Below are positions 1-58,601 of a DNA stretch of 64,000 nt, one piece after another (position 1 is the first letter of the stretch; every line of letters starts with the position of its first letter). Source of the DNA: Malacoraja senta. Lineage: Eukaryota. The translations under genes were made by a program, and so were the position numbers. The notes beneath the pieces were generated by a model. It had not been told where the DNA came from. It was given only the letters and a program-made list of their open reading frames with translations, and did no database searches. The DNA is taken from NCBI GenBank assembly GCA_038087875.1, contig CM075991.1, positions 868,001-932,000 of the forward strand, in the 5' to 3' direction.

Positions 1-535
1 CTTTAGTCATAGGGGTAAATGTAGGCCATTCAGCCCATTGAGTCTACCCTACTATTCAGAATTGCGTGTTAACCAGTCAGAGTAAAGACTGGACATGATC
101 ACAATCGAGCCGTCTGACTAAAGGAATTCCTTCTCATCTCCTTCCTAAAAGAACATCCTTTAATTTCGAGGCTGTGACCTCAAGTCCTCGACTCTTCTCA
201 TAGACAATCTGCCGAGACACAAAAAGCTGTAGTATCTCAGCATCTCTGGAGAGAAGGAATGGGTGATAAGATGGGTCTCGTCACCAGTTCCTTCTCTCCA
301 GAGATGCTGCCTGTCCCGCTGAGTCACTCCAGCACTTTGTGTCTACTGTTTAAACCAGCATCTGCAGTTCCTACCTACATATTTAATCTGTCGGTGGAGG
401 CTAATTCTGGGCGTCAAGGAGGAAGTGGACCATTTGGGGCTGGCTCAGAACAAGCGAGGAGATGTGGCCCGCCTCTAAACTCCAGCGGATCAGCACATGG
501 TCTGTTGCTGAAGGACGCAGCCGGCGGCTAGAAGA

Positions 536-877
536 ATGCGGACAGTTCGGATCTCTCACCTGGTCCAGGGACCATGGTCGCTGATGGTCACCCTGTGCCT
601 CTGCCTCCTGTTCCTCTACTTCCTTGTTCCGGGCTGGCAGCAGCACATCCAGCCCGGGTCCGGGGAGCTGGACAAGCTGCGGGTGGAGGCGGCCAAACTG
701 CGGGTGGAGGTAACAGGGCTGCGGGAGAAGACAGCCAAGCTGCGGGATGAGGCGGCCAAGCTGCGGGATGAGGCGGCCAAGCTGCGGGTGGAGGTAACAG
801 GCCTGCGGGAGAAGACGGCCAGGCTGCGGGATGAGGCGGCCAAGCTGCGGGATGAGGCGGCCAAGCTACAGGAGCAG
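536..877 (+). CDS. Exon 1 of a putative type II TM + coiled-coil (tetherin/BST2-like architecture) gene
   Basis: ATG536 opens MRTVRISHLVQGP-WSLMVTLCLCLLFLYFLVPGW (single hydrophobic anchor), followed by heptad repeats KLRDEAA/KLRVEVT/GLREKTA. Ends ...CAG|gtagcg, phase 0; the same donor sequence recurs at 2214 and 3647. Confidence 0.8.
673..870 (+). repeat. Coding 21-bp minisatellite (heptad repeats, with an 84-bp higher-order unit)
   Basis: About 9.5 copies of (gcc)aagctgcgggatgaggcg-type units; the block KLRVEVT-GLREKTA-(K/R)LRDEAA-KLRDEAA occurs twice. Confidence 0.9.
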
Positions 878-1362
878 GTAGCGGGGGAAAGGCGGCGGTG
901 GAGTTACACAGTAGTGAGCAAAGATACTAGAGGAGCGCTACACTAATGGACAAAGTAGTGAGCGTCCCCACCGACCAGCGATCCCCGCACACTAACACCA
1001 TCCTACACACACTAGGGACAATTTACAATGATACCAAGCCCATCGACCAACAAACCTGCACGTCTTTCGGAGTTTGAGGTTTTTATTGTCACAGTGAAAA
1101 GCCATCCACAGTGTACAGATACAGGATAAGGGAATAACGTTTAGTGCAAGAGAAAGCCAGTAAAGTCGGATTCTAAGCTAGTCCAAGGGTCTCCAATGAG
1201 GTAGATGGTAGTTCAGGACTGCTCTCCAGTTGTTGGTGGGATGGGTCAGTTACCTGATAACAGCTGGGAAGAAACTGAACTCTTACATAGGATCCAGAGA
1301 AATACTTCAAGCAAAGTCATATTTTTTAACATTTCAATATTTTCTTGTGTCTTTTTAAACAG

Positions 1363-1441
1363 ATGTCTGCTCAGAATGAGATGATCAAAAAACTGCAAGA
1401 TCAGGACCAGGACTTGCAATCCAAAATTGACAAAATGCAAG
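1363..1441 (+). CDS. TM-coiled-coil gene exon 2 (79 bp, module B copy 1)
   Basis: Pyrimidine tract ttttcttgtgtctttttaaacag| then MSAQNEMIKKLQDQDQDLQSKIDKMQ(G) |gtcagt; phase 0 to phase 1; heptad pattern. Confidence 0.8.
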
Positions 1442-2104
1442 GTCAGTTCAACAACAATTGCATTTGCATAGCGCCTTGGAGAATGTTCCTAAGTACTAGA
1501 GAGAAATGTATATGTTGAATAAAAGTTGATGCTAAGCCGGTGAGTTGGAGAAGGGGGTCATAAGTTCATTAGTGATAGGAGCAGAATAAGGCCATCTTTA
1601 GCCAGAAGGTGGTGAGTCTGGAATTCTTTGCCACAGATGGCTGTGGAGGCCGTCAGTGGATATTTTTAAGGCAGAGATAGACATATTCTTGGTCAGTACG
1701 GGTGTCAGAGGTTATGGGGAGAAGGCAGGAGAATAGGAGGGAGAGAGAGATCAGCCATGATTGAATGGTGGAGTAGACTGGATGGGCCGAATGACATAAT
1801 TCTACTCCTATCACTTATGACCTTAATTCTACCCCGCCATTCAATCGTGGCTGATCTATCTCTCCCTCTCAGCCCCATTCTCCTGCCTTCTCCCCGTGAC
1901 CCCTTGACACCCACACACTTGTCACAACTGACATAAGAAGGTCATAGATGGGGTCATACAGCGTGGAGCCAGGCCCGTCGGGAGGGGGATAGTATGTTTT
2001 TAAACTCATCAGGAAGCTAAAATATACAGGGGGCAAAGTTTCAACTCAAAGAAGCTCCATCCTTCCTCTCCAAATCCACAATCTTCAAATTCTTCTTTTG
2101 ATAG

Positions 2105-2214
2105 GTGATCTTCAGCGCTGTCGGAATGCGAGCGTGAAACATGGAGAACTGGTGCAAGGATTGAAGCGCAGTTTGGAAAACAATGAAGGCCAAAACTCAA
2201 ACCTACGGAAGGAG
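2105..2214 (+). CDS. TM-coiled-coil gene exon 3 (110 bp, module C copy 1)
   Basis: tcttcttttgatag| GDLQRCRNASVKHGELVQGLKRSLENNEGQNSNLRKE |gtagcg; phase 1 to phase 0, in frame with exon 2; Cys followed by N-glycosylation sequon NAS. Confidence 0.8.
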
Positions 2215-2795
2215 GTAGCGGGGAAGCGAGGGGAGGTTGCGGGAAATGGGGCTGCGGATAGCGGAGCTGTGGGGAAAAACTGGCGATTGGACACTAGTGA
2301 AGGAACGTTACACTATTGGGCAGTAGTGTGGGAGCCACACTGAGTCCTCACCGACTAGCGATCCCCGCACACTAACACTATCCTACACACACTAGGGACA
2401 ATTTACAATGATACCAAGCCCATCGACCAACAAACCTGCACGTCTTTGGAGTTTGAGGTTTTTATTGTCACAGTGAAAAGCTTTTGTTGCGTGTTAACCA
2501 GTCAGCGGTAAGACAATACGTGATTACCATGGAGCCATCCACAGTGTACAGATACATGATAAGGGAATAACGTTTAGTGCAAGAGAAAGCCAGTAAAGTC
2601 GGATTCTAAGCTAGTCCAAGGGTCTCCAATGAGGTAGATGGTAGTTCAGGACTGCTCTCCAGTTGTTGGTGGGATGGGTCAGTTACCTGATAACAGCTGG
2701 GAAGAAACTGAACTCTTACATAGGATCCAGAGAAATACTTTAAGCAAAGTCATATTTTTTAACATTTCAATATTTCCTTGTGTCTTTTTAAACAG

Positions 2796-2874
2796 ATGTC
2801 TGCTCAGAATGAGATGATCAAAAAACTGCAAGATCAGGACCAGGCCTTGCATTCCAAAATTGACAAAATGCAAG
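2796..2874 (+). CDS. TM-coiled-coil gene exon 4 (module B copy 2)
   Basis: aaacag| MSAQNEMIKKLQDQDQALHSKIDKMQ(G) |gtcagt; 1433 bp downstream of copy 1. Confidence 0.78.
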
Positions 2875-3537
2875 GTCAGTTCAACAACAATTGCATTTGC
2901 ATAGCGCCTTGGAGAATGTTCCTAAGTACTAGAGAGAAATGTATATGTTGAATAAAAGTTGATGCTAAGCCGGTGAGATGGAGAAGGGGGTCATAAGTTC
3001 ATTAGTAATAGGAGCAGAATAAGGCCATCTTTAGCCAGAAGGTGGTGAGTCTGGAATTCTTTGCCACAGATGGCTGTGGAGGCCGTCAGTGGATATTTTT
3101 AAGGCAGAGATAGACATATTCTTGGTCAGTACGGGTGTCAGAGGTTATGGGGAGAAGGCAGGAGAATAGGAGGGAGAGAGAGATCAGCCATGATTGAATG
3201 GTGGAGTAGACTGGATGGGCCGAATGACCTAATTCTACTCCTATCACTTATGACCTTAAGTCTACCCCGCCATTCAATCGTGGCCGATCTATCTCTCCCT
3301 CTCAGCCCCATTCTCCTGCCTTCTCCCCGTGACCCCTTGACACCCACACACTTGTCACAACTGACATAAGAAGGTCATAGATGGGGTCATACAGCGTGGA
3401 GCCAGGCCCGTCGGGAGGGGGATAGTATGTTTTTAAACTCATCAGGAAGCTAAAATATACAGGGGACAAAGTTTCAACTCAAAGAAGCTCCATCCTTCCT
3501 CTCCAAATCCACAATCTTCAAATTCTTCTTTTGATAG

Positions 3538-3647
3538 GTGATCTTCAGCGCTGTCGGAATGCGAGCGTGAAACATGGAGAACTGGTGCAAGGATTGAAGC
3601 GCAGTTTGGAAAACAATGAAGGCCAAAACTCAAACCTACGGAAGGAG
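3538..3647 (+). CDS. TM-coiled-coil gene exon 5 (module C copy 2)
   Basis: Identical to 2105-2214 with intact AG/GT. Confidence 0.78.
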
Positions 3648-4228
3648 GTAGCGGGGAAGCGAGGGGAGGTTGCGGGAAATGGGGCTGCGGATAGCGGAGC
3701 TGTGGGGAAAAACTGGCGATTGGACACTAGTGAAGGAACGTTACACTATTGGGCAGTAGTGTGGGAGCCACACTGAGTCCTCACCGACTAGCGATCCCCG
3801 CACACTAACACTATCCTACACACACTAGGGACAATTTACAATGATACCAAGCCCATCAACCAACAAACCTGCACGTCTTTCGGAGTTTGAGGTTTTTATT
3901 GTCACAGTGAAAAGCTTTTGTTGCGTGCTAACCAGTCAGCGGTAAGACAATACGTGATTACCATGGAGCCATCCACAGTGTACAGATACATGATAAGGGA
4001 ATAACGTTTAGTGCAAGAGAAAGCCAGTAAAGTCGGATTATAAGGTAGTCCAAGGGTCTCCAATGAGGAAGATGGTAGTTCAGGACTGCTCTCCAGTTGT
4101 TGGTGGGATGGGTCAGTTACCTGATAACAGCTGGGAAGAAACTGAACTCTTACATAGGATCCAGAGAAATACTTTAAGCAAAGTCATATTTTTTACATTT
4201 CAGTATTTTCTTGTGTCTTTTTAAACAG

Positions 4229-4307
4229 ATGTCTGCTCAGAATGAGATGATCAAAAAACTGCAAGGTCAGAACCGGGACTTGCAATCCAAAATTGACGAA
4301 ATGCAAG
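4229..4307 (+). CDS. TM-coiled-coil gene exon 6 (module B copy 3)
   Basis: aaacag| MSAQNEMIKKLQGQNRDLQSKIDEMQ(G) |gtcagt. Confidence 0.78.
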
Positions 4308-4582
4308 GTCAGTTCAACAACAATTGCATTTGCATAGCGCCTTGGAGAATGTTACTAAGTACTAGAGAGAAATATATATGTTGAATAAAATTCGATGCTA
4401 AGCCGGTGAGTTGGAGAAGGGGGTCATAAGTTCATGTGATAGGAGCAGAATTAGGCCATCTTTAGTCAGAGGGTGGTGAATCTGTGGAATTCTTTGCCAC
4501 GGACGGCTGTGGAGGCCAAGTCAGTGGATATTTTTAAGGCAGAGATAGATAGATTCTTGATCAGTACGGGTGTCAGAGGTTA

Positions 4583-5197
4583 GAAACATAGAAACATAGA
4601 AATTAGGCGCAGGAGTAGGCCATTCGGCCCTTCGAGCCTGCACCGCCATTCAATATGATCATGGCTGATCATCCAACTCAGTATCCCGTACCTGCCTTCT
4701 CTCCATACCCTCTGATCCCTTTAGCCACAAGGGCCACATCTAGCTCCCTCTTAAATATAGCCAATGAACTGGCCTCGACTACCCTCTGTGGCAGAGAGTT
4801 CCAGAGATTCACCACTCTCTGTGTGAAAAAAGTTCTTCTCATCTCGGTTTTAAAGGATTTCCCCCTTATCCTTAAGCTGTGACCCCTTGTCCTGGACTTC
4901 CCCAACATCGGGAGCAATCTTCCTGCATCTAGCCTGTCCAACCCCTTAAGAATTTTGTAAGTTTCTATAAGATCCCCTCTCAATCTCCTAAATTCTAGAG
5001 AGTATAAACCAAGTCTATCCAGTCTTTCTTCATAAGACAGTCCTGACATCCCAGGAATCAGTCTGGTGAACCTTCTCTGCACTCCCTCTATGGCAATAAT
5101 GTCCTTCCTCAGATTTGGAGACCAAAACTGTACGCAATACTCCAGGTGTGGTCTCACCAAGACCCTGTACAACTGCAGTAGAACCTTCCTGCTCCTA
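4583..5197 (-). mobile_element. 5'-truncated CR1 LINE 3' end inserted in unit 3
   Basis: ORF 4678-5172(-) is the CR1 ORF2 C-terminus (LVRPHLEYCVQFWSP...RGDLIETYKI...GHSLRI); (ttctatgt)n tail; it splits gtcagaggtta|tggggagaagg, which is contiguous in units 1-2. Confidence 0.92.
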
Positions 5198-5589
5198 TAT
5201 GGGGAGAAGGCAGGAGAATAGGAGGGAGAGATAGATCAGCCATGATTGAATGGTGGAGTAGACTGGATGGGCCAAATGACCTAATTCTACTCCTATCTCT
5301 TATGACCTTAAGTCTTCTCCGCCATTCAATGATGGCTGATCTATCTCTCCCTCTCAGCCCCATTCTCCTGCCTTCTCCCCGTGACCCCTTGACACCCACA
5401 CACTTGTCACAGCTGACATAAGAAGGTCATAGATGGGGTCATACAGCGTGGAGCCAGGCCCGTCGTGAGGGGGATAGTATGCTTTAAAACTCATCAGGAA
5501 GCTGAAATATTCAGGGAGCAGAGTTTCAGCTCAAAGAAGCTCCATCCTTTCTCTCCAAATGCACAATCTTCAAATGCTTCTTTTGATAG

Positions 5590-5692
5590 GTGATCTTCAT
5601 GACTGTTGGACTGAGAGCGGGAAGCACAGAGAACTGGTGCAAGGATTGAAGCGTAATTTGGGTGACTGTGCAAGCCAAAACTCAAACCTTCG
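5590..5692 (+). CDS. TM-coiled-coil gene exon 7 (divergent module C copy 3, 103 bp)
   Basis: ttttgatag| GDLHDCWTESGKHRELVQGLKRNLGDCASQNSNL(R) CG|gtatga; phase 1 to phase 2. Confidence 0.72.
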
Positions 5693-6657
5693 GTATGATC
5701 TGCAAGTCCTTGTGCCTTTATGAAATAGAACTTGACTTTGGGTACTATTGAATACCTTTGATCACCCGTACACCAGTTCTATCCAACACACCCGGGACAA
5801 TTTACAGAAGCCAATTAACCTACTATCCTGCAAGTTTTTGGAATGTGGGAGGAAACTGGAGCACGAGGGCAGCATGGTGGCACAGCAGTGGAGTTGCTGC
5901 CTTACAGCGCCAGAGACCTGGGTTTGATGCTGCCCATGGGTGCTGTTTGTACAGTGTTTGTATGTTCTTCCCGTGACCATCGGGGGGTTTTCTCAGGGTG
6001 CTCCGGTTTCCTCAAACATCCCAGGGATGTGCAGGTTTGCACGTTAATTGGCTCATGTAAAGTTGTGAATTGTCCCTGGTGTGTGAGATGGTGCTAGTGT
6101 ACGTGGGATCACCGGCCGGCGCGGACTCGGTGGGCTGAAGGACCACGCTGTGTTTCTAAACTAAAACCCAAGCCGCCACAGAGAGAACATACGAACTCTG
6201 TACAGACAGCACCGGTCGTCAGGATCGAGCCCGGGTCTCCGGTGCTGTAAGTGCCGTAAGGCAGCAACCCTACCGCTGTGCCGAGTCTGCGGAAATCTCT
6301 GCCCCAGAGGGTGGTGGAGGCCGGTTCTCTGGATACTTTCAAGAGAGAGCTAGATAGGGCTCTTAAAGATAGTGGAGTCAGGGGATATGGGGAGAAGGCA
6401 GGAACGGGTACTGATTGTGGATGATCAACCATGATCACATTGAATGGCGGTGCTGGCTCGAAGGGCCGAATGGCCTACTCCTGCACCTATTGTCTATTGT
6501 CACTGTGCCGCCCGTATTGGGTTATGGAGAGAATTTCCCTGAGAGTTTGACTCGCTAAAGGCCAGACCAAAGCTGGGCTTCAGTAAGACCATTCTTCAAC
6601 ATCCATTTTTAAAAAACAGCGAGTTAATTCAGAATTCCCTGCATTTATTTCTTACAG

Positions 6658-6772
6658 ACGAAACTGCCGGGGTCAATCATGCAAATGCCAGGATGATAAC
6701 AAATGGTGGCTCAACTTGCCTTTTGGTTTGGGCCGCTTCCTGCGTTGCTGCCTGGGCTATTGCTCCAAATGA
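6658..6772 (+). CDS. TM-coiled-coil gene exon 8 (terminal coding exon; exon continues to donor at 6780)
   Basis: gcatttatttcttacag| read in phase 2 gives (R)RNCRGQSCKCQDDNKWWLNLPFGLGRFLRCCLGYCSK* (TGA 6770-6772), then a strong donor ATG|gtaagt at 6780/6781. Confidence 0.62.
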
Positions 6773-8030
6773 CATGAATGGTAAGTTGAAGGGTCAACCC
6801 ATGCACAGTAGGGGGCAATAATGGGTGTGTGAGTGGGTGCAGGGCTCATCAGTCCTAGGAGCAGAATCAGGCCATTCGGCCCATCAAGTCTACAGCCATT
6901 CAATCATGGAAGCGGTGAGGTATGGGGAGTGGGTGGTGGGAGAGGGGGGGGCGGGGTGAGATGTAGAGATGGTGGGGGGGAGGTGTGGGGGTTGGTGATA
7001 GGGTGTGGGGAATGGGTGTGGTAAAGTTAGTGATAATATGGGGGGGGGGAAAGATTTGTGGGAGAGCGAATCCTTGGGATGGCGACTTGTGGACGCAGCC
7101 CAGACCATCACACAAACCAACCTCCCTTCCATTGACTCCATCTACACCTCACGCTGCTTCGGCAAGGCCAGCTGCATCATCAAGGACCAGTCTCATCCCG
7201 GGCCACTCCCTCTTCTCCCCTCTCCCATCAGGCAAGAATGCAGAAGTGTGAAAACGCATACCTCCAGATTCAGGGAGTTTCTTCCCAGCTGTTATCAGGC
7301 AACTGAACCATCCTACCACAACCAGAGAGCGGTCCTGAACTACTATCTACCTCTTTGGTGACTCTCAGACTATCCTCGATCGGACTTTACTGGCTTTACC
7401 TTGCACTAAATGTTATTCCCTTATCATGTATCTGTATGCTGTAAATGGTTCGATTGTAATCATGTATTATCTTTCCACCGACTGGTTAGCACGCAACAAA
7501 AAGCTTTTCACTCTACCTCGGTACACGTGACCATAAACTGAACTGAACTGAACTAGGGGGAGAGGTGGGTGATTTGTGGGGTGCATGTGGGCAGGGAAGA
7601 TGGGGAGATGGGTGTCGGCAAAGCTTGTTGTGAGAGCTCAGGTCAGTGGACATCCTGGTCGGTTATGCGAGAAGGGTTGTATGAAAGATCAGGAGGATGT
7701 GTAGAATGGAGGTACAGATGCTGGTTTGCACCGACGATAGTGTTGGAGCAGTAACTCAGCGGGTCAGGCAGCATCTCTGGAGGGATAGGATAGGTGACGT
7801 TTCGGGTCGGGACCTTCCTCAGACCGAGGGGAGGGACAGGGAGGTTATGACGTGCTAGGAAAATAGAAATGTCTGAATATCCTGTTGTGCCCTTTAAATC
7901 CCAAGGCAGACCTTGAAGGTTGGACAACTCCTGTCTGAAGGGAAGGCAGTGGTTGGTGGTTATAAACAGAATGATGATCCTCTAGGTGTGACCCTCGAGA
8001 GAACTTTATGGTGAAGATCTTTCCCCACAG

Positions 8031-31226: not shown

Positions 31227-31875
31227 TAGGCTATAAACAGAGAATCTGTTCTCAGTGTTTGGATCAAACCTGGTACCACCAAGTGCAGGAGTGGAGGTAG
31301 CAGGGAGCTGGGTAAGTATCTGACGGGAAGGCATTTGCAGGACGGTGGGAAGAGAGGCGGAGGAGAATCTAGCTGCGGTGGGTACAGAGGAATCTCACTG
31401 ATGAAGTACCAGGTGACTTCAATGTTTGTACTTCGATCCGTGTGGGCATCTATATCTCTGATCCAGGAGGTAAGATGTGGGGTGAGGGGAAAGGTGATTG
31501 TAAGAATTCTACCAGGGTTCCCATTCACACCAACTGTTGTACAGTAGGATACTGGTCGTGAAGAGACCTAAAAGCTTAAATCTTTCCAAACACCCCGAAC
31601 GAGTCAGAAACTCCAAAGTCCACATGTTTACGTGACGTTTAACTCCGCTCGCAACGTTGTCTCCACTAACATTTCTGCAGTAGACATCTTCTGAACAGCA
31701 CTTAGTCACCTTTGAAGGTTCCGGGTATCAGATGCTTGTACATTTGCATCTCTCACTCCTATCACAGCCAACAGCTGTAATATATTGACGATCATATGCA
31801 ATTTTCCACAGCAGATGTGGAAGTGTGAAGGGGAGGCAGCAGTGTTCCTAGAGACACTGTTTGCTCCGTACTCAC

Positions 31876-32022
31876 CCTCTGGTAGTTCTGTTCTTTCTGA
31901 ATCTGTTCCACCTGGTCCAGCAACTGTCGCACACGCAGCTGCAGCTCTGTCAGTTTATCTTTTGCGGCGATTTCTGGGTAGTTATTGGCATGTTCCCCCA
32001 CTTGGATATCAAGGTGCACCCG
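31876..32022 (-). CDS. TMED4: TMED4 penultimate exon (coiled-coil)
   Basis: ctgcag| [49 protein letters not shown] |gtgagt; 147 bp, phase 0-0. Confidence 0.93.
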
Positions 32023-32490
32023 CTGCAGTGGAGAAAAAGGAAATTGTGTTATAATGTCACACAATAACCACCAATGAACATCTCCTAAAACGCAGAGGTA
32101 TTGGTGCCTGCGGACTGCCGATGCCAACCAACAAGTACAAAGCTAAACGGTGGAGACATTGCCATCTGCACAGCTGCTGGGTGCATTTCCAACCTGGCAA
32201 CATGCAAGTCATTTTGATGAGAAACCTCTGGACCTTTTAAGGGGTGATGGTCAGGGTGAAAACAATGAACATGTTCAATGTGGACAGCCCTCCCACGATT
32301 TTCAACCACTCTTACAGACTGCCTAAGGTATAAAGTAACTAGTGAACATATAGCAACCAAAAAATCTCATCAAAACCAGAATAATCAGTGCAAGTTTTTG
32401 ATGAATTGACAAAGGTGATTGATGAGGGTATGGCAGTGGATGTTATCTACACGGATTTAGTAACGCATTTGATAAAGTCCCTCACTGTAG

Positions 32491-35400
32491 ACATAGAAAC
32501 ATAGAAAATAGGTGCAGGAGTAGGCCATTCGGCCCTTCGAGCCTGCACCGCCATTCGATATGATCATGGCTGATCATCCAACTCCGTATCCTGTACCTGC
32601 TTTCTCTCCATACCCCCTGATCCCTTTAGCCACAAGGGCCACATCTAACTCCCTCTTAAATATAGCCAATGAACTGGCCTCAACTACCTTCTGTGGCAGA
32701 GAATTCCAGAGATTCACCACTCTCTGTGTGAAAAATGTTTTCCTCATCTCGGTCCTAAAAGATTTCCCCCTTATCCTTAAACTGTGACCCCTTGTTCTGG
32801 ACTTCCCCAACATCGGGAACAATCTTCCTACATCTAGCCTGTCCAACCCCTTAAGAATTTTGTACGTTTCTATAAGATCCCCCCTCAATCTTCTAAATTC
32901 TAGCAAGTACAAACCGAGTCTATCCAGTCTTTCTTCATATGAAAGTCCTGACATCCCAGGAATCAGTCTGGTGAACCTTCTCTGTACTCCCTCTATGGCA
33001 AGAATGTCTTTCCTCAGATTAGGAGACCAAAACTGTACGCAATACTCCAGGTGTGGTCTCACCAAGACCCTGTACAACTGCAGTAGAACCTCCCTGCTCC
33101 TATACTCAAATCCTTTTGCTATGAATGCTAACATACCATTCGCCTTCTTCACTGCCTGCTGCACCTGCATGCCTACTTTTAATGACTGGTGTACCATGAC
33201 ACCCAGGTCTCGTTGCATCTCCCCTTTCCCTAATCGGCCACCATTCAGATAATAGTCTACTTTCCTGTTTTTGCCACCAAAGTGGATAACCTCACATTTA
33301 TCCACATTATGCTGCATCTGCCATGCATTTGCCCACTCACCCAGCCTATCCAAGTCACCTTGCAGCCTCCGAGCATCCTCCTCACAGCTAACACTGCCCC
33401 CAGCTTCGTGTCATCCGCAAACTTGGAGATGTTGCATTCAATTCCCTCGTCCAAATCATTAATATATATTGTAAATAGCTCGGGTCCCAGCACTGAGCCT
33501 TGCGGTACCCCACTAGTCACTGCCTGCCATTGTGAAAAGGACCCGTTTACTCCTACTCTTTGCTTCCTGTCTGCCAGCCAGTTCTCTATCCACATCAATA
33601 CTGAACCCCCAATACTGTGTGCTTTAAGTTTGTATACTAATCTCTTATGTGGGACATTGTCGAAAACCTTCTGAAAGTCCAGATATAACATATCCACTGG
33701 TTCTCCCTTATCCACTCCACTAGTACATCCTCGAAAAATTCTATAAGCTTCGTCAGACATGATTTACCTTTCATAAATCCATGCTGACTTTGTCCAATGA
33801 TTTCACCACTTTCCAAATGTGCTGCTATCCCATCTTTAATAACTGATTCTAGCAGTTTCCCCACTACCGACGTTAGACTAACTGGTCTGTAATTCCCCGT
33901 TTTCTCTCTCCCTCCCTTTTTAAAAAGTGGGGTTACATTAGCTACCCTCCAATCCTCAGGAACTACTCCAGAATCTAAAGAGTTTTGAAAACTTATCACT
34001 AATGCATCCACTATTTCTGGGGCTACTTCCTTAAGTACTCTGGGATGCAGCCTATCTGGCCCTTGGGATTTATCGGCCTTTAATCCATTCAATTTACCTA
34101 ACACCACTTCCCGGCTAACCTGGATTTCACTCAGTTCCTCCATCTCATTTGAACCCTGCTATTTCCGGCAGATTATTTATGTCTTCCTTAGTGAAGACTG
34201 AACCAAAGTAGTTATTCAATTGGTCTGCCATGTCCTTGTTCCACATGATCAATTCACCTGTTTCTGACTGCAAGGGACCTACATTTGTTTTAACTAATCT
34301 TTTTCTCTTCACATATCTATAAAAGCTTTTGCAGTCAGTTTTTATGTTCCCTGCCAGTTTTCTTTCATAATCTATTTTCCCTTTCCTATTCAAGCCCTTT
34401 GTCCTCCTCTGCTGGAATTTCTCCCAGTCCTCTGGTAGGCTGCTTTTTCTGGCTAATTTGTACGCTTCATCTTTTGTTTTTGATACTATTCCTGATTTCC
34501 CTTGTTATCCATGGATGCACTACCTTCCCCGATTTATTTTTTTGCCAAACTGGGATGAACAATTGTTGTAGTTCATCCATGCAGTCTTTAAATGCCTTCC
34601 ATTGCATATCTACCGTCAACCCATTAAGAATCAATTGCCAGTCTATCTTGGCCAATTCACTTCTCATACCCTCAAAGTTACCTTTCTTTAAATTCAGGAC
34701 CCTTGTTTCTGAATTAACAATGTCACTCTCCATCCTAATGAAGAACTCAACCATATTATGGTCACTCTTGCCCAAGGGGCCACGCACAACAAGACTGCTA
34801 ATTAACCCTTCCTCATTACTCAATACCCAATCTAGAATAGCCTGCTCTCTCGTTGGTTCCTCTACATGTTGGTTTAGAAAACTATCCCGCATACATTCCA
34901 AGAAATCCTCTTCCTCAGCACCCTTGCCAATTTGATTCACCCAATCTATATGTAGATTGAAGTCACCCATTATAACTGTTTTACCTTTGTTGCACGCATT
35001 TCTAATTTCCTGTTTGATGCCATCCCCAACTCCACTACTACTGTTAGGTGGCCTGTACACAACTCCCACTAGCGTTTTCTGCCCCTTAGTGTTTCGCAGC
35101 TCTACCCATATCGATTCCACATCCTCCAAGCTAATGTCCTTCCTTTCTATTGTGTTAATCTGCTCTCTAACCAGCAATGCTACCCCACCTCCTTTCCCTT
35201 TCTGTCTATCCCTCCGGAATATTGAATATCCCTGGATGTTCAGCTCCCAGCCTTGGTTACCCTGGAGCCATGTCTCCGTGATCCCAATTATATCATAGTC
35301 ATTAATAGCTATCAGCACATTCAACTCATCCACCTTATTACAAATGCTCCTTGCATTGAGACACAACGCCCTCAGGCTTGTTTTTACAACACTCTTACCC

Positions 35401-36982
35401 CTTATACAATTATGTTGAAAAGTGGCCCTTTTTGATTTTTGCCCTGGATTTGTCTGCCTGCCACTTTTACTTTTCACCTTGCTACCTATTGCTTCTACCC
35501 TCATTTTACACCCCTCTGTCTCTACGCTCACACATTTAAGAAACCCTTTCCCTTTAACTCCATCCTCAACTATCCCATTCGACACCCCACCCCCCTTATT
35601 CAGTTTAAAACCACCCGTGTAGCAGTGGCAAACCTGCCTGCCAGAATGCTGGTCCCACACCTGTTAAGATGCAATCTGTCCCTTTTGTAAAGTTCCCCCT
35701 TAATCCAAAAGATCCCAGTGATCTAAGAATCTAAATCCCTGCCCCGTGCACCAGTTCCTCAGCCACACATTCAGGTCCCGTATCTCCCTGATCCTGCTCT
35801 CGCCAGCACAAGGAACTGGAAGCAAACCGGAGATAACAACCCTGGAGGTCCTGCTTTTCAGCATTTTTCCGAGCTCTCTAAAGTAACGCTGCAGAATATT
35901 CATCCCCTTCTTTCCGACATCGTTTGTGCCGACATGCACTACCACTTCCGGCTGTTCACCTTCGCCCTTGAGGATTTTCTGCACTCTGTCCGTGACATGC
36001 TGGATCCTGGCACCAGGAAGGCAGCACACCATCCTCGAATCCTGTCTGTTGCCGCAGAAACCCCTGTCCGTACCTCTCACAATGGAGTCTCCCACTACAA
36101 TGGCGTTGCCCGACTTTGGCCTTTTTGGTTTTGGCTCAACAGCCCTATTCGCATCGCAAGCCAGTCTGCCGCTCAATGTTAAAACGTCTTCTGTCCCGAC
36201 AGCTTCTAAGTGGGCGAACCTGTTCACAAGAGGTACAATACCCGGGGACGTTTGCATTCCATGCTTCCCTCCCTTTCTCACTGTCTCGCACCTTCTCTCT
36301 TCCAGTACCTTAGGGGTAACAATATTACTGTAGGACTTGTCGAGGAACGACTCAGTTTCTTGGACAAACCTGAGGTCATCCACTTGCTTCTCCAGTTCCC
36401 CAACACGGTACTTCAGGAGCTGTACCTGGATGCACTTGTCACATTTGTAGCAGCCAGAGGCACCAGCAGTGTCCTTGGCCTCCCACATACTGCAAGCATC
36501 ACACTGAATCAGCTTGCCTGACATCTCCTTCTTTCATCTCTCCCTCTGCAGTGTTTTGCGTAGCCTCCTCTCCTCAGCCTCCTCGCCGAAGATTCTCGAG
36601 CCAAAGACTCACACTTTTCTCACAGGGCACTTCCCTCACTGCTGCTCCCTAAGAGCAGTCTTGCTTATATTGACTGATAAATTGCCTAAATTACCAATTT
36701 ACAATCCAAATTCCTCAGTTTTCAACTGTTTTCCCCCTGACTCACTTCTCTCCTCCCTCTTGGGCTAGAGCCAATCAGTGTTTTCTCTTGCTAATCTTCT
36801 CCTGCTGTTGCTTCCAAATCTACAGCAACTCTGAGTAAAGTCTGCCTGTGCTTTGCCTCTCCTTTTCAACTGTTTTCCCCCCTCTGACTCACTTCTCTCC
36901 TCCCTCTTGGGCTAGAGCCAATCAGTGTTTTCTCTTGCTAATCTTCTCCTGTTGTTGCTTCCAAATCTACAGCAGCTCTGAG
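32491..36982 (-). mobile_element. Near-full-length CR1 LINE in a TMED4 intron (frameshifted)
   Basis: ORF1 35700-36524 has CxxC..CxxC and an SGNH/GDSL esterase (IVVGDSIVRG, VHVGTNDV). ORF2 pieces: APE (LNARS, GITETW, VYRPP, MGDFN, SDHN) and RT ([23 protein letters not shown]). (ttctatgt)n tail; it splits an older opposite-strand CR1. Confidence 0.95.
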
Positions 36983-38146
36983 ACTGATCCAGAAGATTAA
37001 GATGATTCTTAATTGATGATTAAGATGATTCTGGATTGATGGTGACTTGGTGGTATGTATTCAGAATTGGTTTACTCAAAGCAGACATGTGGTTGTGTCG
37101 AAGAACAATACTCTGGCTAGAGGTCTGTGTCCAGTGGAGTTCCTCAGAGAACTCAGATTCAGATTCAACTTTATTGTCATTGTGCAGTGTACAGTACAGA
37201 GACAACGAAATGCAGTAAACTGTGCTGGGACCCGAGTTATTTGTCATATGAATACATGACTTGGACATAAATCTAGATAGATAGATAGATATTTATTTGT
37301 TGTCATTTGAACCTAAGTTCAAACGAAATTCTGTTTCTGCAGTCATACAAACAAGTAAAAAGAACCAAGACACAACACAATTTACACAAACATCCATCAC
37401 AGTGAATCTCCTCCTCACTGTGATGGAAGGCAAAGTCTTATCTCTCCCCTGCACTTTACAGACGACACCAAGATTGCTAGAGTTGCGGGCAGTGAGGAAG
37501 GCTGTCAAAGTATACAGTGGGATATAGATCACCTACAGAAACGGGAAATGGAGTTTAATCCCAGCAAGTACGATGTGTTGCACTTTGGGTGGTCGAAGGT
37601 AAGGGGAAAGTATATGTTTGATGGCAAGACTCTTAACAGCATTGATCTGCAGGGGGATCTTGTGGTCCAGGTCCTTAACATCCTCTAAGTGGCAAACACA
37701 AGCAGGTAGAGTGGTAAAGAATGCATGTGGCATGCTTGCTTTCATAGGTATAGAGTATAAGAGTCAGGAAGTCATGATGCAGCTTTATAGGACACCATTC
37801 AGATAATAATCTGCTTTCTTGTTCTTGCTACCAGACTGGATAGCCTCACATTTATCCACATGCTGCATTTGGAGCATTGTGTGCAGTTCTGGTCACCCCA
37901 TTACAGGAAGAATGTAGAGAGGGTGCAGAGGAGGTTTATCAGATTGAGGCCTAAATGAACAAGTATTAGCTACAGGGAGAGGTTGGACAAACTTGGGTTG
38001 TTTTTTTCTGTGGATTGCTTAAAAGTATATAAAATAATGAGGCATAGAGGAGTCAGAGCTTTTTCCTCCCAGGGTGGCAATATCAAAGACTAGAGGGCAT
38101 AACTTTAAGGAAAGCGGGGCAATGTTTAAAGGAGATATACAGGGCA

Positions 38147-39075
38147 ATAGACAATAGACAATAGGTGCAGGAGTAGGCCATTTGGCCCTTCGAGCCAGCA
38201 CCGCCATTTAATGTGATCATGGCTGATCATCCCCAATCAGTACCCCGTTCCTGCCTTCTCCCCATATCCCCTGACTCCGCTATTTTAAGAGCCCTATCTA
38301 GCTCTCTCTTGAAAGCATCCAGAGAACCTCCCTCCACCGCCCTCTGAGGCAGAGAATTCCACAGACTCACCACTCTCTGTGAAAAAAAAGTGTTTCCTCG
38401 TCTCCGTTCTAAATGGTTTACTCCTTATTCTTAAACTGTGGCCCCTGGTTCTGGACTCCCCCAACATCGGGAACATGTTTCCTGCCTCTAGCGTGTCCAA
38501 GCCCTTAACAATCTTATATGTTTCAATGAGATACCCTCTCATCCTTCTAAACTCCAGAGTGTACAAGCCCAGCTGCTCCATTCTCTCAGCATATGACAGT
38601 CCCGCCATCCCGGGAATTAACCTTGTAAACCTACGCTGCACTCCCTCAATAGCAAGAATGTCCTTCCTCAAATTAGGGGACCAAAACTGCACACAATACT
38701 CCAGGTGTGGTCTCACTAGGGCTCTGTACAACTGCAGAAGGACCTCTTTGCTCCTATATTCGATTCCTCTTGTTATAAAGGCCAACATGCCATTCGCTTT
38801 CTTCACTGCCTGCTGTACCTGCATGCTTACTTTCATAGACTGATGTACAAGGACCCCCAGATCCCGTTGTACTTCTCCTTTTCCCAACTTGGCGCCATTT
38901 AGATAGTAATCTGCCTTCCCGTTTTTGCTACCAAAGTGGATAACCTCACATTTATCCGCATTAAACTTCATCTGCCATGCCTGCCCACTCCCCCAACCTG
39001 TCCAAGTCATCCTGCATTCTTATAGCATTCTCCTCACAGTTCACACTGCCACCCAGCTTTGTGTCATCTGCAAAT
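38147..39075 (-). mobile_element. CR1 LINE 3' fragment
   Basis: ORF 38294-39010 [16 protein letters not shown]...LVRPHLEYCVQFWSP; (tctattg)n tail. Confidence 0.9.
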
Positions 39076-39460
39076 TTTTTTTCCACAGGCAAAGGTAAAT
39101 GCCTGGAATGTGCTGCTGGGGGTGGATATACAATAGTGGCATTTAAGAGGTTTCAGATAGGCACATGGATATGAAAGGAATGAAAGGGTACATGCAGGGA
39201 CTGGAGATTAGTTTAACCTGGCATCACGTTGGGCACAATATTGGCTGAAGAGAAGAGGAAGTGCGTGCAGAACAGAGGATACTCCAGTTACTGGGGGAGT
39301 TGCCCAAGTCCAGCCTACAGTACACATTCCACTTCCTCTAGTTCACTGTTCCTCGTTTCACTTTGAGGTAAGCAACAAGGCAGTTGTAACATAAGCCGCT
39401 GAAAACTCAGACAGGCTTCTATTGAGATAACATACCAAGCACCCAATGTCCAGCTCTTAC

Positions 39461-39585
39461 CAGCTTGCCACCTGCAAACAGTGTCATCTTTGTCGAGTTG
39501 GAGTGGAGGCAGATCTGGTGCTCGCCGGGAGTGTGCGAGGTGAAGGTGAATCTTCCCTCCGAGCCGTACTGCGGGACAGGATCAC
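39461..39585 (-). CDS. TMED4: TMED4 exon 3 (GOLD domain), 125 bp, apparent 1-bp deletion
   Basis: ttcgcag| VILSR-(frameshift)[37 protein letters not shown] |gtaaga. Confidence 0.88.
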
Positions 39586-39992
39586 CTGCGAAGTGGAAGC
39601 AAAGGTCAGACTAGTGAAGGACACAGCAACTCACCACTTGGGGTTCAATCAGCATTCCCCGTGGGAAGGGAACAACTCTACACCTGGAATGAACGATTTA
39701 GCAAAAAAGACAGAGTGCTGGAGTAACTCAGCGGGTCAGGCAGCATCTGTGGAGAACATGGAGAGGTGACGTTTCAGACTGCTGGAGTAACTCAGCAGGT
39801 CAGGCAGCATCTGTGGAGAACATGGAAGGGTGGTATGTCGGGTCGGGGCCCTTCTTCAGACCAGAGTCAAAATATCACCCATGTTCTCCAGAGTTGCTGC
39901 CCAGTCCGTTGAGTTACTCCAAGACTTTTCCCTTCACAGGTAACGGATGTGGAGTTAATATTCTGCACTCTCACTATCGCAGAAGCAAGGAC

Positions 39993-48900: not shown

Positions 48901-50986
48901 TAGTATGTAGTTTATTGGATATTAGTGCTTTTAAGAACATATTGTCACTAATGATTGTTATTCTATGTTTAGTAGATAGTGCGCAAGGTTAACAATTGTA
49001 TAAAAGCTGACTGATGCGAGTAGAAATGTTAGAGTAGCTCGGTAACTGGGACCGTGTTGCTCTCCTTGTGCACAAGTAAATAAAGTTTACAAGTAAAGAC
49101 ACAAACACAAGTTGTCAGACGACAACATCCCTTTCACTTGCTGGAACAAGTTGGCAGATGAAAGGCTGTGGGCTTGGGTCAGGGAGATTAAACTGTTAAT
49201 GTTCAAAAATATGTCTCCAACTTGTCAATGAGTGTACTGCCTCCTGCTTAAAGCAGAGCCATTTAGAGAACAGCATGAAACAGTGCCTGAGTAATTAAAA
49301 TGGTTATGGTTGTGGGCCAGGTTTGTCAGCGCAAAGCTGATGACAGCAGCTATGCAAGGGCAGGAATGGCCACCTCCAGTCCTCGTTTGTTCCACTGATC
49401 GCATCCCATTGAAGAACGACCATTTCCCCATGCACTGTGTCTTTCCCCTGTACAATCCCAAGCAATTTCATAAGTTTTAGGAGAAGAATTAGGTCATTTG
49501 GCCCATCGTCTACTCCACCATTCAATCATGGCTGATCTATCTTTCCGTCTCAACCCCATTCTCCTGCCTTCTTCCCATAACCCCTGACACCTTTACTAAT
49601 CAAGAATCTGTCAATCTCTGCCTCAAAAATATCCATTGACTTGGCCTCCACAGCCTTCTGTGAATTCTACAGATTCACCACCCACTGACAAAAGAAATTC
49701 CTTCTCATCTCCTTTCTAAAGTTACGTCCTTTTATTCTGAGGCTATGGCCTCTGGTCCGAGACTGTCCGACTGGTGGAAAAATCCTCTTAACATTCACTC
49801 TATCCAGCTCTTTCACTATTTGTCCACTCTATCCCGGCCTATCACTACAATTTATTGTACCACATCCAATAGTCAGCTGGCCTCGCAACCTGGCTGCCTT
49901 TAAATGGGATGGGAACTTTGCATTCCCCATTAAGTGGTGTAATGATTCCGTTTCTGTGTTAGCAGTCAGTGTTCTGGAACAGTGATCCAAAGGTACACAA
50001 TCAATCTCATAACACCGAGGCAATTCAATAAGACCTAGAACTTTAAATTTTAACCTCATCTTTGTGATCATAACAGTGAAACAACTGGATTGTCATAAAA
50101 AGTACTGGATGTAATGAAAATCCATCTGGGAACAAAATCTTCTGTGTTGCCCCAGTCTGGCCTGTACCTCACCCAGAATCACCAGCGTGGCTGAGATTTC
50201 TCCATCTCAGTTTAATTTAGAGATACAGTGTGGAAACAGGCCCTTCAGCCCACCGAGTCCGCGCCGACCAGCGATCCCCGCACATTAACACACACTAGGG
50301 ACAATTTACACTTATACCAAGGCAATTAACCTACAAACCTGTGCGTCTTTGGAGTGTGGGAGGAAACCGAAGATCTCGGAGAAAACCCAAGGGGTCACGG
50401 GGAGAACGTACAAACTCCGTACAGACAGCACCCGTAGTCGGAATCAAACCCGGATCTCCGGCGCTGCAAACGCTGTAAGGCGCTGTAACGCTACCGCTGT
50501 GTCACCGTGCTGCCCTTAGTGCCAGGGTAGTTAGGGGTGGGCAATCAATGCAGGCATTGTCTACAACGCCCGTGTTCTCTGCACTTCGGGGCTTCCCTGT
50601 CATTACAATCTCTACCCCATCATTACCCCAGTGATCAAGCCCCAGCTCTCAGCTACTGTGGTCAAACAATCTGCACCCTCTCAGTGTCCAAACATCATGT
50701 TAGTACAAGAGTTCAGACAGAGAATCAATCTACGGACAACAGGTTCTAGTTAGGGGCTAGGAATATTTGTGAACCTGTGGGGCACTGAACCAATGTATTC
50801 CCCAGAGAGACAGAAAATGCTGGAGTAACTCAGCGGGTCAGGCAGCATCGCTGGAGAAAAGGAATAGGTGATGATTCGGGTCGTCTCTTCTTCCGATTGA
50901 GAGTCAGGGAAGAGGGAAACTACAGGTATGAAAAAATACGGGACAGATCAGAGTTAATAAACACTCTGAGAGAAGGGCTGACGTAC

Positions 50987-51163
50987 CAGTACAGGAGGTG
51001 CTCGGAACAAGTAGCTGAATGGATAATATAAGAGATTTATGCATGAGACAGCATACAGGTCAGCGTAGCGTATCAACTGACTGGCAAAAAGGGTTTGTCT
51101 GGAGCCACAACGTAACAGACTTCCCATCTTCCCATAGCACATGTCCATCTCATGCGTCACCAC
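50987..51163 (-). CDS. NT5DC4: NT5DC4/NT5C2-like exon
   Basis: [59 protein letters not shown]; 177 bp, AG/GT intact. Confidence 0.93.
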
Positions 51164-52606
51164 CTGGAAACAGATGAAAGCGTAGCTTAGATTAGTGGTA
51201 ATAAAAGGGCAGGCACCACCCTTCAGAACACCACCTGACCGCCCTCAGCCTCACGCAATGTAAAGGACACCATGAAACCCCGTTCCCCTTGTTCTCACAG
51301 CTGACTAGCCATACCATCACCCACATGCAGTCCCTTGCTGCTCCTAAAGTCTAACAAAAGTCTTGGTCACACTCGTCCTTCCTCATAATTCCTATACCCA
51401 CTGATCAACCCCAATCTAAGTAAATGTTTTTTGGAATCTGATCTGAACCTCTTCCAGTATCTGGAGCTTGTAGCTTCCTTTCCATTGTTCTGCTTTGGCC
51501 TTGCTTCCTTTATCCCTTCTACAGCATGGCTCAGTGGTAGAGCCACTGCCTCACAGCACCAGTGATTCGTCTTCAATTCTGACTTCAGGTGCTGCTTGCG
51601 TGGAGATTGTACATTCACCCTCTGACTGCGTGGGTTTCCTCCAGGTGCTCAGGTTTCCTCCCACATCCCAAAAGTTGCGAGTTTGTAGATTAATTAGCTG
51701 CTGTAAATTGCCCTTTGTGTGTAGGGTGTAGATGAAAAAGTGGGAAACAAGTGTGAACGGGTGATCAATGGTTGGCGTGGATTTTGTGGGCCGAAGGGCC
51801 TGTTTCCATGGTGTATCTCTAAAGAACACTTCGCATATGCCTCTATGTGGCCTGCTCACAAAGGTCTCAGCTTCAAGGAAAGTGGATAATTCAGTAGATT
51901 TCCTCTGACTGTGGAATTATCCTTGTTGTCCTCCCCTGCACCAGTCTGTCTGAATGACCACTTTTAACACTTTGCCCAGATCTGTGCAAACTACTCCAGT
52001 TATGGCCTGACCATAATACTGAATAACATTTCAAAATTGAGAACATCTAGAGAATACAATGCAACAAGACACAAAGGTTTCCTCAACAGTATCTCCCAAA
52101 ATCTGTACAACTGAGAATAAACGGACCCGTAGGAATTCCTGATATCTAGTCCCGTCACAAATCCTGACCTGGACACGACCGTTTCTTCATCAACGCAGGG
52201 TCCAAAGTCTGGTGCTTCCTACCAGCAACACTGTGGGGGTCATCATAAGAATTGCAGAGGTTCAACGTGGCAATTCTCCACCATGTTCTCAGGGATAATT
52301 AGTATCAAGGACATGGCATCTGTGGCTCCATTTTCCAAGCGAGCAGAGAGTGAGTTTACTCTGCTTGTTGTCAATCAACTAATGGGCCTCAGATCTCAAG
52401 AACAAGGTCAGGGGTGAGTAGCTGGTCAAAGTAATTGACATCGAGTTTCAGCAGCAAACAGGCTCCCCAGTCCATAGTCTGTATTGCACAGTTTTAACCA
52501 TATACATTCCATCAAGTGACCCATTTAACACATTAGGTTCTCAATTAATGAAGCAGAAAATATTATTCACAACACATTAACAACTTGGACACAAAGTTGC
52601 CCTAAC

Positions 52607-52667
52607 CTTAATCCGTTTGCGAACTGAGGTGATATCAGGCCGTTCGTTGCTGCTGCTGTCGAGATGC
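52607..52667 (-). CDS. NT5DC4: NT5DC4/NT5C2-like exon
   Basis: (K)HLDSSSNERPDITSVRKRIK; 61 bp, phase 2-0. Confidence 0.92.
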
Positions 52668-53316: not shown

Positions 53317-53368
53317 TTGTAAAATTCAGCCAAAAATATATCGAGATTATGAAGTTCTTCAAAAAGTG
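53317..53368 (-). CDS. NT5DC4: NT5DC4/NT5C2-like exon
   Basis: ALFEELHNLDIFLAEFY(K); 52 bp, phase 1-2. Confidence 0.92.
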
Positions 53369-53559
53369 CTGCAAGAAAGTAGAGGAGATTGCTTAGTATT
53401 TCATGCTGCAGATAAATCTGGACTATTATATATAATGATGCAATAAAGATGTGCACAAACGCTTCATTTAGAAAGTGGATACAAAGGTGATATTAATTAG
53501 CATTAATCACAAGCATTCCATAAATCAGCACAGTGGAAACTTGAATATTATTCAAGAGA

Positions 53560-58298: not shown

Positions 58299-58601
<303 letters not shown>

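Follow-up and report, generated by a model that had tools for sequence, protein, structure and literature searches.

Analysis of the window, a 64,000-nt stretch of the Malacoraja senta genome (assembly GCA_038087875.1, contig CM075991.1, positions 868,001 to 932,000 of the forward strand), suggests with about even confidence that a gene near its start belongs to a previously unnamed batoid family of tetherin-like membrane rods and encodes a working tetherin-like tether. Orthology of this family to BST2 is unproven. The tetherin-like reading had already been put forward in a preliminary description of this DNA. It gained from a second anchor in the family, a modelled parallel dimer, a lead in the ESM Atlas and an ISRE-like motif. 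On the other hand, its argument from N-glycan sequons failed, no sequence match to BST2 was obtained, and the second anchor of the skate copy itself is weak.

The proposed gene structure held up well. Eight exons, each with an AG acceptor and a GT donor upon splice-site reading, were found where they had been placed, and they join with intron phases 0-1-0-1-0-1-2 into one open frame of 338 aa (Table 1). The N-terminal hydrophobic segment, the continuous heptad pattern and two Cys-Arg-Asn-Ala-Ser motifs were likewise present. RefSeq models from Amblyraja and Leucoraja could be aligned to the skate protein over its full length with 78-79% identity, and the C-termini of sawfish and stingray matched the exon 8 frame at 57% across 30 aa, so that a chance arrangement of splice sites is not a reasonable explanation for the gene model. 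The phase 1 frame of exon 8, which is also hydrophobic, was rejected as the true C-terminus because all RefSeq relatives use the first frame. Since the orthologs contain 3 residues more at the exon 7/8 junction than the 338-aa model, exon 7 probably ends at an in-frame GC donor (5701/5702) located 9 nt past the GT donor, which would give a protein of 341 aa. With this GC donor, the last unit and the tail together come to 101 aa in each of the three skates, and every length difference is a multiple of 7. A perfect GTAAGT donor 8 nt after the stop codon, an AATAAA at 8710 and three candidate acceptors point to a putative non-coding last exon. When the duplicated units are collapsed, four coding exons with phases 0-1-2 remain, and the stop lies shortly before the last donor. 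BST2 itself has four coding exons with phases 0-1-2 and a non-coding exon 5 behind an intron in the UTR, with which the collapsed skate structure would agree. For bovine BST-2, four exons are given in PMC3401110.

Table 1. Features of the tetherin-like skate gene; positions are those of the window.
Feature	Position	Strand	Remarks
Exon 1, coding part	536..877	+	With start codon; encodes N-tail of 13 residues, the N-terminal hydrophobic segment and heptad repeats; donor of phase 0
N-terminal hydrophobic segment, aa 14-33	575..634	+	Signal anchor favoured; homolog models show corresponding helices
21-nt tandem repeat, 9.8 copies	673..878	+	One heptad per copy; copy number varies among skates
Exon 2, 79 nt, unit 1 exon A	1363..1441	+	
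Exon 3, 110 nt, unit 1 exon B	2105..2214	+	Conserved Cys and N-glycan sequon
Second duplicated unit, 1433 bp (intron, exon A, intron, exon B)	2215..3647	+	
Exon 4, unit 2 exon A	2796..2874	+	
Exon 5, unit 2 exon B	3538..3647	+	
Exon 6, unit 3 exon A	4229..4307	+	
Exon 7, unit 3 exon B	5590..5692 or 5590..5701	+	GT donor (338 aa) or GC donor (favoured, 341 aa), respectively; phase 2 both ways
Exon 8	6658..6780	+	Encodes Cys-containing linker and C-terminal hydrophobic segment; stop codon at 6770-6772, with the GTAAGT donor 8 nt further on
C-terminal hydrophobic/Cys-rich segment	6710..6766	+	Second anchor of the family; eroded in the skate copy (KD 0.77, two Arg)
Candidate polyadenylation signal AATAAA	8710..8715	+	Would belong to the putative non-coding last exon

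Relatives with the same plan were found in RefSeq for five batoid genera, including Amblyraja, Leucoraja (XP_055514303), Rhinoraja (three loci, LOC144607108/218/285), the sawfish Pristis (XP_051893557) and the stingray Hypanus (XP_059847409); Leucoraja has in addition one truncated paralog. The shared plan consists of an N-tail of 11-15 residues, a hydrophobic segment of 19-20 residues, a heptad region of 165-310 residues whose cysteines occupy a core position and, near the C-terminus, a second hydrophobic segment that has cysteines and a short polar tail behind it. The relatives are labelled as myosin heavy chain-like, RILP-like 1, SYCP1-like, golgin A6-like and trichohyalin-like. These labels are evidently artefacts, as one family carries five different ones and its proteins are short with two hydrophobic ends; with the name-giving proteins they have only a generic coiled-coil composition in common. 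The gene, which had been described as unannotated-looking, is mis-annotated rather than unannotated in its relatives. Within the skate genome, searches with exon 7 and exon 8 DNA revealed no paralogs (3 of 3 and 1 of 1 candidates, respectively, were the window locus), and protein searches returned only the window locus and unrelated repeats. One candidate paralog, L002, turned out to be a simple 21-nt repeat within a mobile element, and a weak match 17 kb upstream was dismissed as noise. A profile search for shark or chimaera members recognised none among 25 hits from 7999 scored (4 known members and 21 without a vertebrate name), which is weak evidence of absence because the search also missed P0005 and P0010, two proteins included in the profile.

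The preliminary description had not noticed the C-terminal hydrophobic stretch, which together with the cysteines behind it is conserved throughout the family. In Pristis, Hypanus and Rhinoraja it has a Kyte-Doolittle (KD) value of 1.9-2.4 with no charged residue and is followed by a polar tail of 4-7 residues. This second hydrophobic stretch implies that the family plan is anchor, coiled coil, anchor, as in tetherin. For the second anchor, a helix that spans the membrane or is embedded in it, with acylated cysteines, is favoured over a GPI signal. In the skate copy, however, this anchor may no longer work. Its protein would then be a type II rod with one anchor and a weak or different activity, like PLVAP, the short TMCC(aT) or bovine BST-2B, while the family as such would be tetherin- or TMCC(aT)-like. 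We regard this as rather unlikely, even though the C-terminus has eroded stepwise, from the values above through 1.3-1.4 in Amblyraja and Leucoraja to 0.77 in the window protein, where it contains two Arg and is the weakest in the family. A rough insertion score likewise gave +6.9 for the second anchor of the window protein vs -2.4 to +0.6 in other genera. Furthermore, the skate copy has gained N-glycan sequons and a longer rod, and PMC3401110 and PMC9599465 provide a precedent in GPI-less paralogs with weak activity. Conversely, the segment and its cysteines have kept their length and frame in all three skates, and the AlphaFold model of the Leucoraja ortholog contains a C-terminal helix at residues 263-283, albeit with low confidence.

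The N-terminal hydrophobic segment (KD 2.25 over a 19-mer) has an equivalent in all members, and we favour an uncleaved type II signal anchor over a cleaved signal peptide. If the segment were cleaved, the family would comprise type I proteins, with a coiled coil and one C-terminal helix with acylated cysteines, that are unable to tether, and the skate copy might be secreted or peripheral, for example as a structural, mucus or reproductive protein. A clean C-terminal helix, adjacent Cys-Cys and a short tail are typical of type I proteins. The batoid C-terminal helix with its Cys-Cys and short tail fits this pattern, the N-tail is merely 11-15 residues long, the sawfish and stingray segments contain small residues at -3 and -1 that could mark a cleavage site, and the upstream neighbour of the gene encodes an astacin protease. 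Nevertheless, cleavage appears unlikely: the stretch of 19-20 residues ending in aromatics is longer than a usual signal h-region, no cleavage motif is common to the family, and the neighbours in the ESM Atlas are type II proteins.

Between these two segments, the protein is predicted to form a rod, which in the window protein would measure ~43 nm if fully helical. Models of two homologs each consisted of a single long helix. Dimer modelling, one of the checks that had been suggested, was performed on the sawfish homolog P0008 and gave a parallel, in-register homodimer in which C80, C139 and C153 each face their own partner (score 0.46 vs 0.00 for the best control; at least 88% of contacts shared between runs; pLDDT of 80 or more). 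Of 30 microbial homodimers, 21 reached the mark applied for homodimers, and of 23 monomers none did. Among eukaryotic homodimers 17 of 29 reached it (7 of 16 from animals), but those lacking an older solved relative did so in only 1 of 7 cases; the pass of P0008 may therefore reflect memory of coiled coils. According to the model, the cysteines would be placed for inter-chain disulfides in a parallel dimeric coiled coil. C139 of P0008 is invariant across the family, and Cys 146, 209, 272, 293 and 307 of the window protein occupy one shared core heptad position. The weight that had been given to the Cys-Arg-Asn-Ala-Ser motifs was misplaced, as their sequon is confined to the two duplicated units of the skates and missing in the ectodomains of sawfish, stingray and Rhinoraja, leaving the Cys as the only invariant residue.

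Direct searches for homology to BST2 and PLVAP, which had likewise been suggested, produced no match to either profile. Neither BST2 nor PV-1 (PF06637) was among the best 25 Pfam families for any of the 8 proteins scanned, PF16716 had no match in the skate genome, and no BST2 chain was present among the best 60 of 115 PDB matches. Foldseek with the monomer model returned 0 matches, a search that a single helix makes uninformative. The ESM Atlas gave no more than a lead: the top match of P0008 was a BST2-like cluster (0.86; 187 of 256 features; 88% with PF16716), and PLVAP ranked fifth (0.80); only 2 of the 10 best family hits shared the top family, and the tool flagged the assignment as probably wrong. 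The skate ortholog P0002 had no BST2-like match there. A BST2 profile match is a weak criterion, however, since the discovery of non-mammalian tetherins relied on their position and structure (PMC10617486), and for tethering the right architecture is enough even where sequence homology is lacking (PMC3989765).

In architecture, the batoid proteins share with tetherin/BST2 (CD317; PF16716) the short N-tail, the N-terminal membrane segment, the parallel dimeric coiled coil with cysteines (here modelled) and a second hydrophobic end; four coding exons (in the collapsed skate gene), a possible ISRE and low sequence conservation are further common traits. They differ in having no detectable sequence match and a longer rod, 164-311 aa, whereas that of human BST2 is roughly 110 aa. 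Moreover, the second end is helix-like with cysteines and a polar tail instead of a terminal GPI signal, N-glycan sequons occur in the skate repeats only, and a YxY endocytosis motif is absent, there being no tyrosine in the 13-residue N-tail of the skate protein. TMCC(aT)/CCDC194, compared by architecture and position, has the same cytoplasmic tail, transmembrane segment and coiled coil, and its long avian isoform contains a second hydrophobic region in exon 4 (PMC10617486). It is, however, defined by adjacency to tetherin in the PLVAP cluster, while the skate copy lies elsewhere. PLVAP/PV-1 is also a type II protein with a long, cysteine-containing coiled coil, but it is described without a second anchor in PMC9599465, and the batoid family has no Pfam PV-1 match.

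As had been proposed, the skate gene does not reside at the PLVAP-linked tetherin locus. Its neighbours are the astacin protease gene upstream, a p24/TMED gene, a 5'-nucleotidase gene and further exons that we take to be GPAT-like, and not CILP2 and PLVAP. Searches of the skate assembly with PV-1, GRIM-19, MnmE/GTPBP3 and UPF1 to place the tetherin block gave no match. A CILP search identified one gene, presumably CILP1. ANO8 was not recognised in six translated anoctamin loci, the names of which are our own assignment, and the thrombospondin search was swamped by decayed copies. A DDA1 match adjoins SGPL1-like exons. No family member was present in 200 kb around each of three places from the CILP, anoctamin and DDA1 searches, and the tetherin block, which may harbour a paralog, may be absent from this assembly. 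In the sawfish, a PAPP-A entry of Pristis is 485 accession numbers away from P0008, which is too weak a link to name a chromosome.

If the skate protein is a tetherin-like tether, its first segment would be retained as a type II anchor with the rod outside the cell, and the C-terminal segment would provide the second anchor. Two chains would align in parallel, as modelled for the sawfish homolog, and their opposed cysteines could then form inter-chain disulfides. If the analogy to tetherin holds (PMC3715405, PMC3989765), the gene would be induced by interferon, and when an enveloped virus buds, one pair of anchors would enter it and the other pair would remain in the cell membrane, so that the particle is held. 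Unique DNA upstream of the ATG contains an ISRE-like motif at a distance of 642-658 nt, one of three strict matches in 464 kb; the motif also fits a splice acceptor, and no GAS or NF-kB pattern was found. That the protein is a two-anchor rod of merely convergent shape, with a housekeeping role in membrane shaping or spacing (Golgi, endothelial diaphragm, cell-surface organisation) and not antiviral, seems quite improbable: hamster tetherin (GREG) does shape the Golgi (PMC3989765), the avian TMCC(aT)-L has two hydrophobic ends and yet is intracellular and does not restrict (PMC10617486), and a sequence link to BST2 is missing, but rapid divergence, changes in copy number and variable rod length are more typical of host-defence genes, and the ISRE-like motif speaks for the same.

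Taken further, the tether reading leads to a tentative, though possible, view of an undescribed tetherin-class family of rays and skates, in which a second transmembrane helix with acylated cysteines replaces the GPI anchor. Such a family would tune its tethers between ~25 and 47 nm by means of 21-nt repeats, duplicated exon pairs of 63 residues and, in Leucoraja, a shorter isoform, the steps among skates being whole heptads. The gene would have moved to a new chromosome in hardnose skates, separate from the other family members, and the family would represent either a relocated batoid BST2 lineage or a second, convergent vertebrate origin of virion tethering. Natural two-anchor rods are, to our knowledge, rare. 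If true, synteny searches would miss such genes, which are hidden under wrong names and, in skates, away from PLVAP. The family would also offer natural tests of a true second transmembrane helix in place of a GPI anchor and of the effect of tether length on restriction, for a protein described as working by shape alone. The clade by itself would not be the novelty, as an origin of tetherin before cartilaginous and bony fish diverged has already been claimed (Heusinger 2015, cited in PMC6002735).

The rod of the skate copy would have been lengthened through in-register duplications. The second 1433-bp unit, which is 1% divergent from unit 1, adds 63 aa or 9 heptads, and length differences among the skate orthologs amount to whole heptads. 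In the last unit, 14-18 of the 60 aa vary between skates. Between units, exons diverge by 13-14% and introns by 4.3%; with pN about equal to pS, positive selection is not shown. The donor of exon 3 and the start of the following intron are similar to those of exon 1.

The eight-exon splice model of the preliminary description agreed with the sequence: AG/GT ends were present at the proposed places, and phases 0-1-0-1-0-1-2 gave a frame of 338 aa. At the exon 7/8 junction, the orthologs have three residues more than this frame, and an in-frame GC donor after 5701 yields these three residues and a protein of 341 aa. With this donor, all three skates have a last unit plus tail of 101 aa, and the skate proteins differ in length by 21, 7 and -56, all whole heptads, versus 24, 10 and -53 with the GT donor. 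We propose the GC donor of exon 7 as a correction to the GT-donor model. The stop codon lies 8 nt 5′ of a GTAAGT donor; since only ∼0.01 donors of this type are expected by chance per 20 nt of the window, this favours a putative non-coding last exon.

With exon 1 as query, two proteins were found among 8000 scored candidates, both of them skate RefSeq models. The Amblyraja ortholog, XP_032869788, is named myosin-like, while the Leucoraja ortholog, XP_055517978 (longer isoform, XP_055517977), carries RILP- and SYCP1-like names. Two full-length ortholog proteins aligned with the window protein from end to end at 78-79% identity. Judged from these alignments, the window gene is a real gene that is mis-named in the databases of its relatives; as far as the searches reach, it is single-copy in the 1.94-Gb assembly (window, G000:C15:868001-932000). 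The Leucoraja protein as query gave 4 matches of 618. An exhaustive protein search gave 12 matches at E up to 0.001, 10 of which were inspected: six were batoid members (two each from Leucoraja and Rhinoraja, one from Pristis at E 7e-11 and one from Hypanus at E 4e-7) and four were bacterial, fungal or unnamed coiled coils. A third Rhinoraja locus was added by cluster look-up. No shark or chimaera members were found by a profile search (25 matches of 7999 scored), which also missed the members P0005 and P0010. No description of the family was found among the listings of an open-access library; Blanco-Melo 2016, Heusinger 2015, Andrew 2011 and Perez-Caballero 2009 may list such cartilaginous-fish genes. 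The gene is confirmed within an unnamed batoid family that has the architecture of tetherin, an unusual second anchor and a rod of variable length. The Leucoraja protein XP_055514303 is a truncated paralog: it lacks the second anchor, its model reads on from an exon A into the following intron, and its contig differs from that of the Leucoraja ortholog.

In all full-length members, a C-terminal hydrophobic stretch is followed by cysteines. The preliminary description, which had assigned one transmembrane helix at the N-terminal hydrophobic segment, overlooked this family-wide feature. The aromatic start, adjacent Cys-Cys and polar tail of this stretch favour a candidate second transmembrane helix with acylation sites over a GPI signal. 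Taken as the best 19-residue Kyte-Doolittle mean, its hydrophobicity reaches 1.9-2.4 in Pristis, Hypanus and Rhinoraja, where it has no charged residue and 4-7 mostly polar residues come after it; Amblyraja and Leucoraja score 1.3-1.4, and the window protein, which has two Arg here, 0.77. That the family is tetherin-like and its skate copy has lost the second anchor is the strongest alternative to a working tether, albeit an unlikely one. AlphaFold predicted helices at 9-29 and 34-216 in the sawfish (Pristis) protein (pLDDT 83), and at 14-31, 44-241 and 263-283 in the Leucoraja ortholog (pLDDT 75; last helix low). We consider it improbable that the N-terminal segment is a cleaved signal peptide.

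The dimer modelling suggested in the preliminary description was run on the sawfish homolog and gave a parallel, in-register coiled coil in which C80, C139 and C153 each lie opposite their own partner. The score was 0.46 versus 0.00 for the best control, at least 88% of contacts were common to the runs, and pLDDT was at least 80. Among microbial homodimers, 21 of 30 reached the score mark, and among eukaryotic cases 17 of 29, whereas no monomer of 23 did; as only one of the seven eukaryotes without an older solved relative reached it, the sawfish score may reflect remembered coiled coils. In the window protein, Cys 146, 209, 272, 293 and 307 all fall at the same core position of the heptad. 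The Cys-Arg-Asn-Ala-Ser motif had been likened to BST2, a likeness we abandon: the sequon is confined to skate units 1 and 2 and only the Cys is invariant.

Tetherin dimers hold virions axially, with one anchor pair per membrane (PMC3715405). The batoid family has the same anchor-rod-anchor plan, and an artificial protein of this plan works (PMC3989765). On this analogy we favour, with about even confidence, that the window gene would act as a tetherin-like tether, its product placing one anchor pair in each membrane. Shape alone is insufficient, since the avian TMCC(aT)-L, hydrophobic at both ends, did not restrict (PMC10617486). A non-antiviral membrane role seems the least probable reading.

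Only generic coiled coils or nothing came back from Pfam (best 25 families per protein), from PF16716 searched against the genome, from sequence comparison with the PDB (best 60 of 115 matches) and from Foldseek. The proposed BST2/PV-1 profile check gave no family match to tetherin or PLVAP among the listed Pfam families. In the ESM Atlas, a BST2-like cluster ranked first for the sawfish protein (0.86, 187/256 features) and PLVAP fifth, but only two of the ten best family matches agreed; nothing similar was seen for the skate ortholog P0002, and we treat this match as a lead only. No statement on BST2 exon phases was found among the listings of the open-access library. Tests for the BST2 position, a YxY motif, conserved glycosylation sites and a match to the profile came out negative, so BST2 membership is not established and the gene is tetherin-like by anatomy. 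We lean slightly towards common descent of the family with the BST2/TMCC(aT)/PLVAP group.

The rod appears to have grown by repetition. Exon 1 contains a 21-nt repeat in 9.8 copies, one heptad per copy, and a 1433-bp intron-exon-intron-exon unit, each copy contributing 63 aa or nine heptads, occurs in three copies in each of the three skates. Exons 3 and 5 end like exon 1, and the introns belonging to them are similar to intron 1; this suggests that recombination between exons 3 and 1 produced a phase-0 chimeric exon. Units 1 and 2 mostly show 2-6 differences per 60 aa within species versus 4-10 between species, pointing to gene conversion; unit 3 shows 14-18 between species. Compared with unit 3, the exons of units 1 and 2 have 24 and 26 changes in 180 nt, and their introns 40 and 41 in 923 (Fisher p about 1e-5). 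With pN (0.13-0.15) about equal to pS (0.13) between units, diversifying selection on the exons is only possible. At 990-1200 nt 5′ of the ATG lies a 210-bp piece that is probably a remnant of an earlier tandem gene copy; it shares 90% identity, in the same orientation, with the low-copy part of intron 2/4/6.

Positions of features in the window and elsewhere in assembly G000 (C, contigs; L, stretches)
Feature	Position	Strand	Basis
p24/TMED gene exons	window 31795-39610	-	Pfam
NT5C2/NT5DC4-like 5′-nucleotidase exons	window 50957-58601	-	Pfam
Astacin metalloprotease exons	L056:9709-9999, L057:1446-1592	-	Pfam
210-bp intron-like piece	C15:867339-867548 (L057:9339-9548)		
ISRE-like motif	C15:867878-867894 (L057:9878-9894)		
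Conserved segment just 5′ of ATG	window 470-535		
Retroviral-type pol fragments	C15:690780-693011 (L040)	-	
Sole DDA1 match	C14:11.0 Mb (L118)		
Anoctamin tandem duplicate	C1:2.15-2.23 Mb (L085-L092)		
Intron-less anoctamin frame	C16:9.05 Mb (L102)		

By Pfam, astacin lies upstream of the gene, and p24/TMED and 5′-nucleotidase genes lie downstream. The p24/TMED assignment agrees with the neighbour named earlier, presumably TMED4. Nearby exons are presumably GPAT-like and histone H2B, and we take the p24/TMED and 5′-nucleotidase block to neighbour the IL-1 beta region in birds. The gene is indeed apart from the PLVAP-linked tetherin position, as first described: its neighbours differ. Searches for the block genes did not find the CILP2-PLVAP tetherin block in this assembly. 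Non-mammalian tetherins sit between CILP2 and PLVAP (PMC10617486). The skate orthologs are on contigs of 15.6 and 18.4 Mb, similar to C15 (14.3 Mb), whereas contigs of 31-36 Mb carry the Pristis, Rhinoraja and truncated Leucoraja copies and one of 91 Mb the Hypanus copy; from this we infer that the skate gene was relocated as a copy that kept its introns.

Elsewhere on C15, pol fragments in separate frames mark an old endogenous element. The DDA1 match adjoins SGPL1- and PCBD1-like exons, and in mammals DDA1 presumably sits in another block. A thrombospondin C-terminal profile matched 158 places over many contigs, many intron-less with stops; these are dispersed decayed copies, perhaps of a host fragment that a mobile element has spread. 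An anoctamin gene, which we take to be ANO10-like and beside ABHD5-like exons, lies in a near-identical 35-kb tandem duplicate on C1, and a 629-aa intron-less anoctamin frame on C16.

An ISRE-like triple GAAA motif lies in unique DNA just beyond the edge of the window, 642-658 nt 5′ of the ATG. With four patterns tried, it is one of three strict matches over 464 kb, and it can also be read as a 3′ splice acceptor; ∼400 nt of repeats separate it from the proximal promoter. GAS and NF-kB patterns were absent near the gene. On the upstream side, the astacin exons are ∼9-11 kb away and oriented head to head with the gene. The segment just 5′ of the ATG is conserved in the Rhinoraja models P0006 and P0007, which translate through it; the 5′ region would thus have moved along with the gene, which is what copying at the DNA level predicts.
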